From NCBI GenBank assembly GCA_965242965.1, contig OZ251518.1:5120001-5184000 (forward strand): DNA of 64,000 bases. Reading direction: 5' to 3'. Positions 3,569 to 64,000 of the stretch are shown here, in pieces; the first letter of the stretch is position 1, and each line of letters begins with the position of its first letter. The notes beneath the pieces were generated by a model. The model was given only the letters and a program-made list of their open reading frames with translations. It did not search any database and was not told the DNA's origin. A program made the position numbers and the translations under genes. Source of the stretch: Candidatus Poribacteria bacterium. GTDB lineage: Bacteria; Poribacteria; WGA-4E; WGA-3G.

Positions 3569-6118
3569 ATGCAGTTTATCAAACACTTTTCAGAAATTAT
3601 GGACGAAGACCTCGGGCATGTCGGCGGAAAAGCACTCAACCTCGGCAAATTGACGCGCGCCGGATTTGCTGTCCCTAACGGGTTCTGTCTCACAACAGAT
3701 GCCTATCGGTTTTCGGTGAAAGACGTGCCAGAAGTTGCAAAAGACATCGCGTTGGCACCCGCACTTATCGCCGCAATTCAGGACGCGCGCGCGCGGTTGC
3801 AGACAGATACCGTCGCAGTCCGTTCCAGTGCAACCGCCGAAGACCTGGGGGATGCTAGCTTCGCCGGACAACAGGATACATTCCTCAACGTTACCGACGA
3901 CACGCTATTGGATGCTGTGAAGGCGTGCTGGGCATCCCTCCGCTCTTCACGTGCAATCGCCTATCGGCAAACACAAGGCATCTCCGAGGAAGACTTGGCG
4001 ATGGCGGTTGTCGTGCAAGAGATGTGTCCTGCCGAAGTTGCCGGCGTGCTGTTCACGGTAAGTCCTTTTGACGAAAATGTCTGCATCATTGAATCCAATT
4101 GGGGACTCGGCGAATCGGTCGTCTCCGGCGAAATTACGCCTGACAACTTCCATGTCGCGCGGGAAACAGGTGAGGTTATCAAAAAAACGGTTGCGAAAAA
4201 AACGGAGATGGTCAGCGCGTTTTGTAAGCGCGCCCCAGTGCCTCTTGCGAAACAGGACATACCGAGCCTCACAGACGCACAACTGAAATCCCTCGCTAAA
4301 CTCGGCATGCAGGTAGAGGCATTTTACGGACAACCGATGGATGTTGAATGGGCTTTTGCTGACAGCGAATTGTTCTTGCTGCAGGCGAGAACTATTACAG
4401 GACAGAAAAAAGCGGCGCGCTTGCAATGCATGTCTATGGGAACTACGGAAGCTGTGGAAAAACTGCGCCAAGAGGAAATCCGCCGCCTAGAAAAACGCGC
4501 CGATAAACACGGCACCGTCTGGTGTCATCACAACATCGCCGAGGTTCTGCCCGCGCCGTTGCCGATGACATGGGAAATCGTCAAGGAATTTATGTCGGGC
4601 AACGGTGGCTTAGGCATTGCGTATCGCAATTTAGGTTACTATCCCAGCGCGCGCGTGGATACAATGGGCATCCTTGACTTGGTTTGCGGCCGCATCTACG
4701 TCAACCTAAACCGAGAAACCGAACTCTATTTTGACGGCTACCCCCTCGCGCACGATTTTGAAACACTGAAACGGGAACCGCAAAAGGCGATGTACGCGCA
4801 AGCCGCACCGAATATCCGTCACAGCTCCGCTTCGTTTTGGTTCAAACTCCCGATACACCTCGTGCGGATGAGTAGTGCGGAATTACGTCTACGCAAACAA
4901 CGTCTCGATTTTGACAGGCGGTTGACAGAGCAAGTATTCCCGCAGTTCCAAGCGACAGTTAAAACGGAGTGGAACATCACCTATCCCCACCTGTCCGATA
5001 CGGAAGTGGTGGAGAAGTTCCAGGAATGGCGCACCAAAACCTTGCGCGAATTCGCACCACAGGCACTGATGGCGACGCTCCTCGCAGGATTTTCACTGCA
5101 GCGGCTAGAGACAGGATTCGCAAAGTGTCTCGATGAAACCGAAGCGAAGGGACTCACACAACAACTCATCACCGGTTTATCGGGCAACCTCACCGTCGAA
5201 ACGAATGAAAAATTGTGGCAAGTAGCAGTGGGAACCCTTTCTCTTAACGAATTCTTGGCGGAGGCCGGACATCGCGCTGTCGGTGAATTTGAATTGGCGC
5301 AACCGCGCTGGCGCGAGGATACGAGTTATCTTGAGCAGATTATCGCTTCTTTTCGGACGCGCTTGAAAGATGATAGAAAGAACGCGCGCGTTGCAAACGG
5401 TGAAGGTGCCTCTCAACAACGCGAAGAAGCAGAAAACCGCCTCGCCGAGTTGCTGAAAAATAAAAAGAACTTGTGGAAACAGATTGGGGAAGAACTCGCG
5501 TTCACACGCCGTTATATGCCGTTTCGCGAAACGGCGAAATTTTATCTCATGCTCGGTTATGAGCAAATTCGGCGCGCTTTAGTAGAACTTGACAGGCGGT
5601 ATCAACTCAATGGCGGCATTTTCTATCTGGTGCCAGATGAATTAACTCGGCTTATCAACGGTGAAGATTTTAGCCGCATCATTGCAGAACGCAAATCACA
5701 GCGAGATGCCTTGCTACAGATTGAACTTCCCGATGTCCTCTTTAGCGATTCCCTAATGGAAAAGTTGTCTGATGAAGAGACAGCGCAAACCTCGCCTACG
5801 CATGCGTATACCGGCGTGGGCATCTCCGCGGGCGTAGCGACAGGCCCCGCGCGTGTGCTTTTGGACCCGGGGGATGTCCATCCGAAAGACCGGGGATACA
5901 TTCTGGTGTGTCCCTCGACAGACCCGGGGTGGACACCGCTCTTTCTGCACGCCGCGGGGTTAGTCATGGAGCGCGGCGGTATGTTATCGCACGGCGCGGT
6001 AGTAGCACGAGAATACGGCATTCCCGCCATCGCCAACATCCCGAACGCAACCCGAAACATCGCTGATGGACAGCAACTCCACATCGATGGAAACCGAGGC
6101 ACTGTATCTATTGGCTAG
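3569..6118 (+). CDS. PEP-utilising phosphotransferase (PPDK_N ATP-grasp + central domain + C-terminal swivelling His domain; rifamycin phosphotransferase-like architecture)
   Basis: VGGKA, AVRSSATAED, SFAGQ, DVEWA, LLQAR; TDPGWTPLF, SHGAVVAREYGIPA; start moved to ATG 3569. Confidence 0.85.
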   Translation: MQFIKHFSEIMDEDLGHVGGKALNLGKLTRAGFAVPNGFCLTTDAYRFSVKDVPEVAKDIALAPALIAAIQDARARLQTDTVAVRSSATAEDLGDASFAGQQDTFLNVTDDTLLDAVKACWASLRSSRAIAYRQTQGISEEDLAMAVVVQEMCPAEVAGVLFTVSPFDENVCIIESNWGLGESVVSGEITPDNFHVARETGEVIKKTVAKKTEMVSAFCKRAPVPLAKQDIPSLTDAQLKSLAKLGMQVEAFYGQPMDVEWAFADSELFLLQARTITGQKKAARLQCMSMGTTEAVEKLRQEEIRRLEKRADKHGTVWCHHNIAEVLPAPLPMTWEIVKEFMSGNGGLGIAYRNLGYYPSARVDTMGILDLVCGRIYVNLNRETELYFDGYPLAHDFETLKREPQKAMYAQAAPNIRHSSASFWFKLPIHLVRMSSAELRLRKQRLDFDRRLTEQVFPQFQATVKTEWNITYPHLSDTEVVEKFQEWRTKTLREFAPQALMATLLAGFSLQRLETGFAKCLDETEAKGLTQQLITGLSGNLTVETNEKLWQVAVGTLSLNEFLAEAGHRAVGEFELAQPRWREDTSYLEQIIASFRTRLKDDRKNARVANGEGASQQREEAENRLAELLKNKKNLWKQIGEELAFTRRYMPFRETAKFYLMLGYEQIRRALVELDRRYQLNGGIFYLVPDELTRLINGEDFSRIIAERKSQRDALLQIELPDVLFSDSLMEKLSDEETAQTSPTHAYTGVGISAGVATGPARVLLDPGDVHPKDRGYILVCPSTDPGWTPLFLHAAGLVMERGGMLSHGAVVAREYGIPAIANIPNATRNIADGQQLHIDGNRGTVSIG

Positions 6119-60538: not shown

Positions 60539-61723
60539 TTAGGATACCTCTCGCTTTTGAATTAAGAAAAGGAATTCGCGGTTTGGACGTTCCGATGCGC
60601 TTACCCATTCATGTGTCCACTTCATGCTGGCCATGACGTTTTTCTTATAATTGCGGGCAACGACATCAAGCAGTTTACCATGCTTTTGAATCACTTCATT
60701 GAGTTCTTTGGCGGTTGCCCGGCCGCCAGAACTATATGATAGAAGTATCCATCGCGCTTGCGTTACCTGAATCAGTTTGTCAATTGCATCAACGGCGATG
60801 AAGCGGCCCTCCCGGTTGCGTCGAAATTCTTCAAAAACAGAGGCAGAAACCGTATCTGATGTATCCTTACGTCGCCTTGCCTTCCCAAAAAGTGGCGGCC
60901 GGTCAAAGAGAACAACGCTTTGCCAGAGGTGGTAATATGCGGCGTATCTAACCCGGGAGGCGGGCATTTTATCATTGCTTGATCCGTACGGCGGATCAAA
61001 ATATGCGATGTCTACGGTGACACGCGGTGCTAACTCAAAAATGTCGCTCCGGAAAACTTGATGTTTTCCAGTTGCACAAGTCAGTCTCCGGTTGCCGAGA
61101 AGGTGTGAATCTGCCCTAACGAGATTCGGCACCTTCATTACAAATTCTCGATAGGAGCGAGGTGCCCATTCTCTGAGATAAGCAGAAAAGTGACCAAGGC
61201 TATTGTCAACCTTGTCTAATGCCAAAATTAGACTTGTTAACGCTACCGCTTTATCTACTGCATTGAGGTTGAGCCTTTCAATTTCCTGCCGGACTGCATC
61301 CAATTTGCGCGTGTTATGCAACTGCCATGGTCTCTTAAGCCCATCTTCTTGCATTGCGCATCCGCCGTTAGGATGCCCACCATAATGCTCAGTGAACCAG
61401 CCATCAACAGGCGGAATGGCGTTGAGATGCTCAATGAGCGGTTGATATGCCTCTTGCCGGTTTTCGGAGAGAAGATAGCATCTCCCAAAAATTTCCGACC
61501 ACGGTGCAATGTCATTGCAGAGGAATGTATAGCCCGACTTGGCGAGTGCCTGTGCGACTCGCGTCGTCCCTGAAAAGCCGTCTAAAACGGTTTTCGCCTT
61601 GACTTTCGCGGCTAGATGCAATATGTCAGGGATAAGTTTCAACTTCGATCCGACGTATTTTATGCCTTCTGTGGCAGGGGCATCAAGCCGGAAGTCATCA
61701 AAGAGTGGAAGCGTTTGAGTCAC
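60539..61723 (-). CDS. D12-class N6-adenine DNA methyltransferase
   Basis: KYVGSK, DGFSGT, ND, YFDPPY, LSYS; GTGA overlap with the endonuclease stop. Confidence 0.9.
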   Translation of the reverse strand: MTQTLPLFDDFRLDAPATEGIKYVGSKLKLIPDILHLAAKVKAKTVLDGFSGTTRVAQALAKSGYTFLCNDIAPWSEIFGRCYLLSENRQEAYQPLIEHLNAIPPVDGWFTEHYGGHPNGGCAMQEDGLKRPWQLHNTRKLDAVRQEIERLNLNAVDKAVALTSLILALDKVDNSLGHFSAYLREWAPRSYREFVMKVPNLVRADSHLLGNRRLTCATGKHQVFRSDIFELAPRVTVDIAYFDPPYGSSNDKMPASRVRYAAYYHLWQSVVLFDRPPLFGKARRRKDTSDTVSASVFEEFRRNREGRFIAVDAIDKLIQVTQARWILLSYSSGGRATAKELNEVIQKHGKLLDVVARNYKKNVMASMKWTHEWVSASERPNREFLFLIQKREVS

Positions 61724-62121
61724 GGTTTTATGCTCCTTCTCTGCTTCAGCGCAGCAATGTCTGCGACAATTGCCTCAACGGCTGACGTGTGTCCTGACTC
61801 TGAGCATACCAAAGCGTGAGAAAACAGTTTGACAAGCTGCCGGTTATGCGAATAGTGAATCCATCCACCGGTAAGGCTCTCGAAGTATTTCTGTCCTTTT
61901 GTTGTATGAGTCCACAGCCCACGTTGAAGAGCGTTTGCACTAGCACCGCCGTAGCGCACTTCGCAGACGTAGTCTTCCGAGTTGTCGTAAAAACGGTAGA
62001 CAGGATGCTTCCTACCCCGGCCCCTGTCTTCTCTGGTGATGCGGGCAGTTTCGCGCACTGCACGCTCCCAGTCAAACACAAGAATGTTGCAACGTTGATT
62101 CCTCTCATCGTAGATGAAGGG
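61720..62121 (-). pseudogene. 3' fragment of an interrupted type II restriction endonuclease
   Basis: Frame reads PFIYDERNQRCNILVFDWERA...EVRYG...ANALQRGLWTHT; coupled to the MTase. Confidence 0.75.
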
Positions 62122-62182
62122 AAAGCCGGCCGACTCGGAAAGCCGGCCGACTCGGAAAGCCGGCCAGCAAAGCCGGCCGACT
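62120..62182. repeat. Terminal direct repeats of the element
   Basis: GGAAAGCCGGCCGACTC x2, then two more AAAGCCGGCC; GGCCAGCAAAGCCGGCC recurs at 62551-62567. Confidence 0.95.
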
Positions 62183-62199
62183 ACGACCTGAACGGAAAA

Positions 62200-62526
62200 C
62201 TAACCACGACCACCACGCAAGACAACACCATAACCAAGTGGCATCTTTTCATAATAAACCTTGTCTACCAAACGCGAATTCGCCCACGCTAGCTCCTTGT
62301 CTAAATCCACACGCGCTATCTCGTCGCGCAAAGCCGCGCGCTCTTCATGAGAATTAGGACCCCCGGAAAATGCGATGCCAGACGCTTTAAGACGCGCAGA
62401 CAACTCATGAGAACGCCCAGAAAGCTCACACGCGCGATGTAGATACGCGGTCCTAAGCTCTTCCAACTGGGAAAAGGAAAGAGACCGCAAAGACGGCAAA
62501 CTCAAAACCGTCGGCAAAATTGACAT
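62200..62526 (-). CDS. Element ORF3, 108-aa helical hypothetical protein
   Basis: AGGAGG RBS before ATG 62526 (MSILPTV...). Confidence 0.7.
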   Translation of the reverse strand: MSILPTVLSLPSLRSLSFSQLEELRTAYLHRACELSGRSHELSARLKASGIAFSGGPNSHEERAALRDEIARVDLDKELAWANSRLVDKVYYEKMPLGYGVVLRGGRG

Positions 62527-62634
62527 TTCGGACCTCCTACAAATACTGGTGGCCAGCAAAGCCGGCCACCGATGGCCATATTCACCTTCTACCTGTTTTT
62601 GCAACACCGGCCCGATGCCGATGATTGCAGAAAT

Positions 62635-62663
62635 AGTATAGCATATCCGCAGACTAATTGCAA
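62635..62663 (-). promoter_or_regulatory. Element-internal sigma70 promoter facing ORF3 and the MTase
   Basis: TTGCAA-N17-TATACT with TG extended -10. Confidence 0.7.
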
Positions 62664-62885
62664 GATGGCGAACGCGCGCGCCAGCCGCCTGCATTGCAAT
62701 TTGCAATGCCAACCACGCGCGCCGCGGACAAACGTGTAAATAGAATTTTCGATGACACCGTTTACACAATCAAACAGGACAATTGTGTAAACAGAAATCC
62801 GAACAGCAAACGGTTTACACAAAAAACGCGGACAAGGAAAAAAATTTAAACGCGCGACCGCGATAAATGTGTAAAAGTTATCTGT

Positions 62886-63194
62886 CTATCGGAAAACCGA
62901 ACACCTAAACGGGAAAGGTAAATCGGGAACGATACCGTCTACCCAGCAGCCGAACGCAATCCGGCCGCGCTCATGCCGATGTGTTAAGAACTGGCCATCG
63001 GTTAACGTCTTGACTAAACGAAACGCCGAACCGCTCGGTAAACGCGAAACCGATGACAACCACCGAACCGATGCCGATGGGAAAGCATGCCAGCACTCAA
63101 TAAAAGCACGATGCCGAACATCGGGAAATTGCAACTCAAGGACTCGGTATGGGAAATGCCGACCGAACCAATGACCGCGCACTTCAGAACTCAT
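62886..63194 (-). CDS. Element ORF2, 102-aa basic/aromatic hypothetical protein
   Basis: GGAGG RBS; ATGA overlap with the ORF1 stop (MSSEVRGHW...). Confidence 0.65.
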   Translation of the reverse strand: MSSEVRGHWFGRHFPYRVLELQFPDVRHRAFIECWHAFPSASVRWLSSVSRLPSGSAFRLVKTLTDGQFLTHRHERGRIAFGCWVDGIVPDLPFPFRCSVFR

Positions 63195-63469
63195 GGGATA
63201 TCCTCCAACCGAATCCAATAGCAAGACTCGGACAAACGGGAATCCGCAATAGGGACCCCCTCGCAAATTTGACCGCGCACGTCACCGCGCTTTTCTAAAA
63301 GCCGAATTAACCGGCACGCGGTTGGCCGACTAATGCCAGCCAAACGGGAAAGACACGCGATACCCATTTCGGGAAATTGATGCCACTTGACAATAAATTT
63401 CTCTTGACACCATGACCGAACCTTGACTTCGGGAAAGAGACCCAAAGCCTCATACTGCCAATAATACAC
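63191..63469 (-). CDS. Element ORF1, 92-aa putative (winged) HTH protein
   Basis: AAGGAGG RBS + GTG 63469; IACLSRLAGISRPTACRLIRLLEKRG.V HTH pattern. Confidence 0.7.
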   Translation of the reverse strand: MYYWQYEALGLFPEVKVRSWCQEKFIVKWHQFPEMGIACLSRLAGISRPTACRLIRLLEKRGDVRGQICEGVPIADSRLSESCYWIRLEDIP

Positions 63470-63679
63470 GAAAACCTCCTTGTAGGTGGCCCACTCAACG
63501 GCCACAGCACTTGACAGAAAAAGTAGTTAAACATTATTCTGCAGAATAATGACAGCACTAAATACGATGCAACCTTGGCCATCAGAGATTGACAGAATCT
63601 CGGATTGCGGTTTTCAGAAAATGCCGACAACCCCCAAACTTGTCAAATAAATGCAAAGAACCAAGAAAACGGTGCAACG

Positions 63680-64000
63680 TGGTAACACGTTGACATCACG
63701 AAATTCAGTGAAAGCAGGAGCCTCCAGAATTTTTTGGACCGCGCTCCAGTCGCTCACTTCCGGTCCCGCTTGTTCAAGCAACGGAAACATGCGGAAGTTT
63801 TTATCGGTGGAAAGTTGGAGATGTCCTTCACCGTAAGCTTTGAGGCTGACAGGAAATTCTGAGCCCGTGATTTCATTGATAATTTGGATATCCTCCTCCT
63901 TTGACTTCGCACGGTAGTGTTCCTTGCCCACATGAATCGAACTGAAATCATACATGTATTGATTGATGAATTCAGCGATGGCTATCTCCGCCAAATCTCC
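63680..64000 (-). pseudogene. 5' part of the interrupted restriction endonuclease (continues beyond the window)
   Basis: GDLAE...EEDI...SLKAYG...LQLSTDK PD-(D/E)xK-variant pattern; ends DVNVLP at the junction. Confidence 0.75.

Follow-up and report, generated by a model that had tools for sequence, protein, structure and literature searches.

A restriction endonuclease gene on the - strand of a Candidatus Poribacteria genome is split by an insert of 1,561 bp, and we propose, tentatively and with somewhat less than an even chance, that this insert is a non-autonomous module of an undescribed mobile element or mini-replicon of about 3.5 kb, inserted by an enzyme acting in trans. The stretch of DNA analyzed (hereafter the window; 64,000 nucleotides, G000:C1:5120001-5184000, GenBank contig OZ251518.1) belongs to a genome of 5.70 Mb in two contigs, of which C1 measures 5.66 Mb. 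A locus named L001 extends the region past the window edge, and an L001 coordinate is the window coordinate minus 56000; all other positions below are those of the window. The split gene, the insert and the neighbouring methylase gene are placed as follows.

63679..64000 in the window, - strand: 5' (N-terminal) endonuclease fragment, with its ATG at L001:8129 (window-equivalent 64129), aligning to residues 1-149 of intact homologues.
62118..63678, - strand: insert of 1,561 bp, 5'-GTTGCACCG...GGCTTTCCCT-3', with its limits taken from empty-site contigs in the runs X5, X6 and X7.
61720..62117, - strand: 3' (C-terminal) endonuclease fragment, 133 codons counted from 62121, where the frame resumes PFIYDERNQRCNILVFDWE.
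60539..61723, - strand: intact gene for a D12-class N6-adenine DNA methyltransferase of 394 aa (Pfam PF02086, E 4.3e-16).

The 5' fragment starts MNNHNPYKDF... and reads ..AFTEFRDVNVLP (..FRDVNVLP) before it enters the insert (..RCTVFL..); it comprises 149 native codons followed by 22 foreign codons of the insert, with the stop at 63614. At the other end of the gene, the TGA of the 3' fragment overlaps the GTG start of the methylase gene (GTGA), i.e. the two are translationally coupled. Sixty related genomes were searched for DNA copies of the insert and for homologues of the endonuclease. The 3' fragment (query residues 1-131) matched intact homologues in three of them, G015, G010 and G030 (E 3.7e-61 to 2.0e-58, 68-70% identity, open frames of 289, 271 and 288 aa), and in all three a methylase homologue with an open frame of 395-396 aa lies directly downstream of the intact endonuclease. 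The two fragments, of 149 aa and 133 aa, tile these homologues (282, 282 and 262 aa as aligned, from L003, L005 and L004) free of gaps and overlaps around ..DVNVLPLIYDEKNQRCNILVFDW.. / ..DVNVLPLIYDEKNQRC... An earlier note on this DNA, made from the sequence alone, had described an endonuclease frame on the - strand that is split, resumes at 62121 and overlaps the methylase start. The tiling bears this out, and the gene is genuinely split by the insert.

Regarding the nature of the endonuclease, no match was obtained in Pfam or NCBIfam with the two fragments, in PHROGs with an intact homologue, or among PDB sequences, and the AlphaFold2 model was poor (pLDDT 44.7) and unusable for structure search. 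The nearest ESM Atlas clusters were auto-named 'SspI family protein' (0.98, 232/256 features), followed by the NgoPII and SmaI families. Because of these clusters and the conserved coupling to the methylase, the identity as a type II restriction endonuclease is well founded; the SspI-like family name is only a lead, and avoidance of the SspI site (AATATT) speaks neither for nor against it. Since both fragments are free of further stops and frameshifts, the insertion event was probably recent. Cut after residue 149 of about 282, the endonuclease is presumably inactive, and the methylase gene is whole. The restriction-modification pair was probably acquired horizontally, because the endonuclease is patchy (three of the 60 relatives, and neither of the two same-genus genomes among them) and because the G+C content of the pair is low (48.9%, against 54.2% for the genome); that of the insert is 50.1%.

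Twelve sequencing runs were listed, five of which contain 87-100% of the sampled words and come from two studies, and four public runs containing parts of the stretch carry the label sponge metagenome. We compared the contigs of four runs (X2, X5, X6 and X7) over L001:4500-9500, X2 being of a different study than X1. Contigs of X5, X6 and X7 each join L001 6117 to 7679 and skip exactly 1,561 bp ('both = 0'), with 255 letters on the shorter side of the joint in X6 and X7. In X2, one contig of 3,746 nt crosses the insert and both junctions with 0 mismatches, and therefore the occupied structure is not a misassembly. The length of about 1.56 kb given in the earlier note is thus fixed at 1,561 bp by the empty-site contigs of three of the four runs.

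The insertion point lies between C and T of ..GTTACCAC^TCATCTAC.., within a Leu codon (CTC). The empty allele reads ..GTGTTACCAC|TCATCTAC.., translated V-L-P-L-I-Y, and the three relatives have Pro-Leu at this position too (CCC CTA, CCT TTG and CCT TTA). The flank bases (..CCAC, TCAT..) have nothing in common with the insert ends (GTTG.., ..CCCT); no target base was lost or gained, and the junctions show neither duplication nor microhomology. Terminal inverted repeats (TIRs) were not found when the left 60 nt were compared with the reverse complement of the right 60 nt: the score of 4 is below the shuffle mean (5.0) and was reached or exceeded in 499 of 500 shuffles. The absence of TIRs and of a target-site duplication (TSD), as previously noticed from the sequence, is confirmed by this shuffle test and by the empty alleles. 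The limits themselves had to be moved. They had been placed at 62122-63682, and the true ones, 62118-63678, are 4 bp away with the same length; the former join (..TTACC|CTTCATC.., P-F-I) needs two extra substitutions at the join together with the chance identity of two bases. The GG core, which had been taken as the junction homology, is lost with this correction, the corrected ends sharing no base with the target.

An 8-mer, ACGTTGCA on the - strand, occurs at 63673-63680 (the left edge of the insert) and again at 62088-62095, 26 nt inside the 3' fragment; the two copies are in frame and lie within a 22-nt stretch that is 73% alike. An alternative junction with a TSD at this repeat is incompatible with the homologues and the empty alleles. 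Around the target, GTTRC and GYAAC motifs that resemble the insert-terminal GTTGCAC are abundant, possibly a sign of target preference.

Both forms of the site are present in X5, where the empty form reached a depth of 3,663 (flanks 3,761-4,639) and the insert-bearing contigs, with 0 mismatches to the window, 76-139; in this one sample the depth of the occupied form is about 2-4% of that of the empty form. Each flank piece of the empty form carries 6-49 differences to the window (roughly 1-3.5%), and therefore the empty sites belong to sister strains. The insert is a presence/absence polymorphism between strains, and excision at this site is not demonstrated. The proposal that excision would restore restriction is not supported: the empty sites come from other strains, and no circle ('goes back') joint was among the 15 joints listed for the contigs of X2, X5, X6 and X7, a kind of data that cannot reveal rare forms.

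Read 5' to 3' on the - strand, the insert consists of a leader of about 210 nt with a palindrome, the pair ORF1-ORF2 (ORF, open reading frame), a TTTACAC array, a G+C-rich inverted repeat, a promoter, ORF3 and 17-bp repeats. Its features are as follows.

63532..63551, no strand: perfect 10+10 bp palindrome CATTATTCTG/CAGAATAATG, upstream of ORF1 and overlapped by promoter-like hexamers.
63191..63469, - strand: ORF1, 92 aa, winged helix-turn-helix protein; GTG start with AAGGAGG 5 nt upstream, and a stop overlapping the ORF2 start (ATGA).
62886..63194, - strand: ORF2, 102 aa, winged-helix protein and paralogue of ORF1 (28% identity), with GGAGG before the start.
62734..62881, no strand: five TTTACAC repeats of alternating orientation in 26-nt repeat units, with an A+T-rich stretch, from the repeat listing.
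62673..62723, no strand: G+C-rich imperfect inverted repeat with the central near-palindrome GCATTGCAA-A-TTGCAATGC, between the TTTACAC cluster and the ORF3 promoter.
62635..62663, - strand: sigma-70-like promoter TTGCAA-17-TATACT (with TG), upstream of ORF3 and facing the endonuclease 3' fragment and the methylase gene.
62200..62526, - strand: ORF3, 108 aa, predicted antiparallel helical hairpin; ATG start with AGGAGG 6 nt upstream.
62120..62183, no strand: tandem 17-bp repeats, GGAAAGCCGGCCGACTC on the + strand, in two exact and two degenerate copies, abutting the right terminus.

The ribosome-binding sites of ORF1, ORF2 and ORF3 lie 5-7 nt before the starts. That the insert holds three such co-oriented ORFs (92, 102 and 108 aa) without known mobility motifs, as first noticed by inspection, is borne out by Pfam, NCBIfam and PHROGs, in which no DDE, HUH, recombinase, transposase, integrase, Rep, relaxase, reverse transcriptase or TnpB match to ORF1-3 was obtained at the curated threshold. 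ORF1 and ORF2 have a common core, FP..V...FI..WH.FP...L, and yielded in Pfam weak generic winged-helix matches only (HTH_IclR and MarR, E 5.5e-4 and below). Their relatives reach the curated thresholds for MarR_2, HTH_IclR and HTH_24, and the family profile matched in the PDB only AsnC, MarR and IclR regulators, at E >= 0.08. In the ORF2 type, 27 columns are invariant over 7 sequences (52-92% identical to ORF2), including F14-P15-Y16, W35-H36 and H74-x-R76-G77; judged from this alignment, the ORF2 type is a real, constrained family. PHROGs gave nothing for ORF1 and ORF2, and for ORF3 one family of unknown function at E 0.032. ORF3 was modelled by AlphaFold2 with a pLDDT of 81.7 and helices at 18-51 and 57-94; a Foldseek search against the PDB gave generic helical hairpins, none below E 0.35, and the ESM Atlas had no cluster at >= 0.9. 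Small helical-hairpin proteins occur in plasmid copy control (Rop), which offers an analogy for ORF3.

The palindrome upstream of ORF1 is covered by hexamers on both strands (TTGACA-18-TATTCT at 63511-63540 on the + strand and, read by eye, TTGCAT-18-TATTCT on the - strand) and is probably the operator of the ORF1-ORF2 operon. With 5 copies in 300 bp against 0.074 per kb, the TTTACAC array is the densest such window in the 5.66-Mb C1, and it is most likely a candidate binding array for ORF1/ORF2, iteron- or operator-like. Hairpins built on GGCCGGCTTTGCTGGCC stand on both sides of ORF3, and the ORF3 promoter, by its direction, may transcribe the methylase gene. At the right end, the 17-bp repeats form on the - strand two strong hairpins, which stop 6 nt short of the terminus; this fold (-21.4 kcal/mol, z = -3.34) was equalled by 0 of 200 shuffles, and the left end, of different sequence, gave z = -1.95. 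Two short words are in excess, GTCGGC with 6 occurrences on the - strand (0.64 expected) and TTTCC with 16 (2.5 expected). Inspection by eye only yielded no convincing integron-type (GTTRRRY) or Xer-type core.

A reading of the TTTACAC repeats as DnaA boxes was set aside, 3 of 9 positions differing from the boxes of the host origin. Measured against what we take to be the relaxed DnaA consensus, one copy is exact and three have one mismatch, and no claim is made from this. The likely chromosomal oriC lies at G000:C1:3471399-3471655, with nine DnaA boxes within about 260 bp (eight TTATGCACA and one TTATCCACA); judging from the ends of their sequences, the open frames beside it resemble dnaA, recF and gyrB.

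We then looked at the relatives of the insert. At the DNA level, the 60 related genomes gave chance matches of 30-39 nt only. A profile of ORF1/ORF2 found no match in 175 other Poribacteria genomes and matched the genome of origin alone. Searches of JGI metagenomes, GTDB species genomes and IMG/VR brought no member of the family, the matches there being generic IclR-like helix-turn-helix proteins; thirteen loci taken up as candidate members (L012-L024) likewise proved to encode generic IclR-like or multi-domain helix-turn-helix proteins and were rejected. PLSDB, searched with the insert DNA and one ORF1-type member (P0013), and the INPHARED phages, searched with the insert DNA only, gave no match, and at the level of abstracts the Poribacteria literature on mobile elements, restriction-modification and plasmids describes no such element. 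Among 5.8 billion protein clusters, ORF1 had three homologues (71-78%), ORF2 one (92%) and ORF3 one (72%). A profile search of 1.84 billion representatives returned 29 matches at E <= 0.001, of which 17 are small proteins of the ORF1 or ORF2 type; the other 12, long proteins of 372-680 aa, were dropped as generic multi-helix-turn-helix proteins with a Mos1-type N-terminus. In total, the relatives of the insert proteins amount to about 20 among 15 billion proteins, some ORF1-type members carrying a C-terminal extension of 60-130 aa, and to date nearly all members of the family come from unbinned metagenome contigs.

These relatives occur together. Co-occurrence being judged by identical contig size, ORF1-, ORF2- and ORF3-type proteins stand on one contig of 3,497 nt, and pairs of ORF1- and ORF2-type proteins on contigs of 4,013 nt, 3,588 nt and 3,695/3,696 nt. 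Seven of the 21 distinct family contig sizes fall within 3,492-3,696 nt (P ~8e-8 under a log-uniform null, for a range chosen after seeing the data), and two family contigs are much larger, 18.8 and 19.7 kb. That the size stays at about 3.5-3.7 kb although the proteins are only 30-45% identical points to complete small molecules, or to units bounded by repeats with a conserved architecture. In addition, a contig of 3,159 nt in X6, with a depth of 51.7 against 23.5 for the chromosome (2.2x), matches the insert. Identity is ~97% over 324 nt of the ORF2 region (11 differences) and ~86% over about 405 nt covering ORF1 and the left end (49 differences, 12 gaps); the match reaches within 1 nt of the insert terminus and is followed by 291 nt other than the endonuclease gene.

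Taken together, these data led us to the reading given at the outset, which we hold as possible and leading. The full-length relatives would be mini-replicons or insertion sequence-like units of about 3.5-3.7 kb, and the insert would be the DNA-binding and regulatory core of such a larger unit: a coupled ORF1-ORF2 operon, probably autoregulated via the 20-bp palindrome, whose products would most likely bind the array of five TTTACAC repeats, a separately promoted helical-hairpin ORF3, and a terminus made of the 17-bp tandem repeats and hairpins. The cutting and joining enzyme would be encoded in the roughly 1.9 kb (a replicase or recombinase site) that the full-length relatives appear to have and the insert copy lacks. 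It would have catalysed an end-defined insertion between C and T of CCAC^TCATC, at codon 150 of the endonuclease, leaving no target duplication, no target loss and no homology. As an outcome, the endonuclease is truncated and the methylase gene kept, the latter possibly transcribed from the outward-facing ORF3 promoter. The data show directly the insertion and its exact limits, its absence from sister strains, the genes it carries, and how rare its proteins are and that they occur together; a 3.5-kb parent element, an enzyme provided in trans and functions for the ORFs and repeats are what we infer. As for the explanations offered in the earlier note, a non-autonomous element mobilised in trans and the remnant of a small virus or plasmid both stay viable, the proteins recurring on contigs of about 3.5-3.7 kb; the IS607 mechanism does not.

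Several points weigh against this module reading. The genome contains the insert only once: searches for other copies or empty sites with the whole insert (blastn) and with its ends (blastn-short) matched the insert alone. No candidate trans-acting enzyme is linked to it. The clustering of contig sizes can also arise from repeat-bounded assembly, and a match in X6 up to the insert end is expected for a discrete element and for a larger torn molecule alike. We infer the 3.5-kb size of the relatives, their circularity, the extra 1.9 kb of content and the presence of the same termini elsewhere from contig sizes and that one X6 contig. Obvious repeats stand at one terminus only, and the two ends share only a weak GTCGGC...CCGAG resemblance. 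Concerning the proteins, residue 52 of ORF1, in the recognition-helix motif SRPTAY, is Cys, a position occupied by Tyr in 13 of 14 family members, so that the insert copy may be decaying. ORF2 differs from its closest relative by 8 amino-acid changes for 11 base changes, a ratio that does not point to purifying selection over so short a distance.

Part of this evidence is shared with a one-off illegitimate capture, in which a break in the chromosome would have been sealed, by chance, with a linear piece of a small plasmid or virus that has no defined ends and would not move again. We consider such a capture unlikely, although it deserves serious weight. It agrees with an insert that is single-copy and without a recombinase, with ends lacking a TIR, a TSD or any common motif, with relatives that seem to be larger molecules of which the insert makes up under half, and with the substitution of a near-invariant residue in ORF1. 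Against it, the joins are base-perfect on both sides, with no microhomology, target deletion or filler; joins without a base lost, gained or shared are typical of catalysed transposition or site-specific insertion as opposed to illegitimate joining. One end coincides with the block of tandem repeats and hairpins, and the insert holds whole genes with their promoters and is no random slice. Moreover, the genome, which is 94.7% complete, yielded no Ku gene. On the strength of the base-perfect joins, the terminus built of repeats and the missing Ku gene, we prefer an enzyme-catalysed, end-defined insertion.

A new kind of autonomous element would dispense with the enzyme in trans: recombination or transposition would be the work of one of the small proteins, or that protein would act as initiator for a mini-replicon able to integrate in the absence of a classical integrase. 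The ORF2 type, in which R12, Y16, H36, H74 and R76 are invariant, is the candidate. The family has its conserved core in the ORF1/ORF2 pair, with invariant Tyr, His and Arg residues, the repeat arrays beside the pair would suit the recognition of an end or an origin, and the insert offers no other enzyme. These arguments are outweighed, in our opinion, by the fact that ORF1 and ORF2 match only generic winged-helix DNA-binding domains, by the single copy in the genome, and by relatives that seem about 1.9 kb longer, with room for an enzyme. To our knowledge, about 100 aa is also smaller than any known recombinase catalytic domain. We thus regard autonomy as improbable. Equally doubtful is the broader idea that the ORF1/ORF2 pair, the repeat arrays and ORF3 form a new class of very small mobile element, with seamless insertion and a chemistry outside the known transposase, integrase and HUH families; its enzyme would be either the ORF2-type protein of about 100 aa, with the invariant Tyr, His and Arg, or one encoded on the 3.5-kb full-length form.

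A serine transposase of the IS607 family acting in trans, with recombination at a GG (CC) dinucleotide common to element and target, had been put forward earlier and now has very little probability left. The passages on this family in PMC6188088 describe GG at both termini and in the target, with exchange across the identical 2 bp, and among its traits the absence of TIRs and TSDs and short direct repeats near the ends. The insert has GG within 2-3 nt of both junctions, and the genome carries one IS607-like unit (TnpA and TnpB). However, the empty alleles of three runs and the Leu codons of three relatives put the crossover 2 nt from the GG; a crossover at GG predicts ..CCCTTC.. (pre-insertion allele ..TTACCCTTCATC..), and ..CCACTC.. 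was observed. The resident IS607-like element is moreover single-copy, and its ends are unrelated to those of the insert (best match 11 nt, E 0.66). It lies at G000:C1:971901-973750 (L025:3900-5750) and encodes a TnpA of 213 aa with an N-terminal helix-turn-helix and a resolvase-type catalytic domain (PF00239, E 1.9e-15), overlapped by an open frame of 531 aa that we read as TnpB from its position and size only. GTAG-type REP-like repeats are found just upstream of this unit. Finally, a self-splicing intron or other RNA-level intervening sequence, with the endonuclease still made, would fit an insert that is co-oriented with its host gene and whose removal is 'in frame', but this has a negligible probability, given that Rfam at E <= 1 returned no group I or II model match (a chance miRNA match only, E 0.78), that promoters, ribosome-binding sites and three ORFs are present within the insert itself, and that strains without the insert exist at the DNA level.

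The insert is a natural, base-perfect 'scarless' insertion by machinery not yet named, and its closest analogues, IS607 and IS200/IS605, are valued for leaving no scar. It also points to a family of elements of about 3.5 kb that binning-based genomics has overlooked. For the host, an uncultured sponge symbiont, mobile DNA has presumably disabled a restriction system in the smaller part of the population, which bears on the balance of defence and gene flow in such closed communities. Should the full-length relatives encode an ordinary transposase or Rep, the insert would be an ordinary non-autonomous derivative.

The contig comparison brought two further observations around the locus. A second joint, L001 5407 -> 7943 (window 61407 -> 63943), skips 2,535 bp from the interior of the methylase gene to the interior of the endonuclease 5' fragment; seen in X5 (depth 627) and X7 (depth 13) with only 25-28 letters on the shorter side, this joint could be an artefact or belong to a different organism. 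Past the window edge and upstream of the endonuclease, L001:8174-8507 is a repeat region with a summed contig depth of about 50,000 to 3,000,000 in the four runs and dozens of alternative skips of 87-254 nt, i.e. a highly multicopy, variable intergenic repeat.

Among the known systems, elements of the IS607 type often interrupt restriction-modification genes, and the insert resembles them in lacking TIRs and a TSD, in its short direct repeats near an end and in its size class of 1.5-2 kb. In contrast, it has no serine recombinase (no Resolvase match in ORF1-3 at E <= 1 in Pfam and NCBIfam), its crossover is not at GG, and its repeats are obvious at one end only. The PATEs of IS200/IS605 elements and MICs likewise have no transposase, TSD or TIR and would need an enzyme in trans, and the insert shares with them hairpins at an end. 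Unlike PATEs, it is single-copy and not a dispersed family, and it carries three genes that look expressed from their signals; unlike IS200/IS605 elements, it has strong hairpins at the right end only and no Y1_Tnp match. Two Y1_Tnp matches exist elsewhere in the genome and are not linked to the insert, and no IS110-type gene was found in the genome.

The insert is also close to iteron plasmids, by its winged-helix proteins beside five short repeats and an A+T-rich stretch and by relatives on contigs of a plasmid-like uniform size. It differs from those of the Rep_3-like kind, since its ORFs and their relatives match no Rep family and only generic winged helix-turn-helix domains (HTH_IclR, MarR_2 and HTH_24), since the TTTACAC repeats alternate in orientation, and since it would be only part of a presumed replicon known from contig sizes. 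With phase-variable restriction-modification systems it has in common an inactivated endonuclease beside a whole methylase, whereas reversibility is not evidenced here and the empty sites come from other strains. The interrupted locus itself corresponds to a type II restriction-modification system (putatively SspI-like), in that the methylase adjoins the endonuclease and is coupled to it, the same gene pair being present in three relatives.

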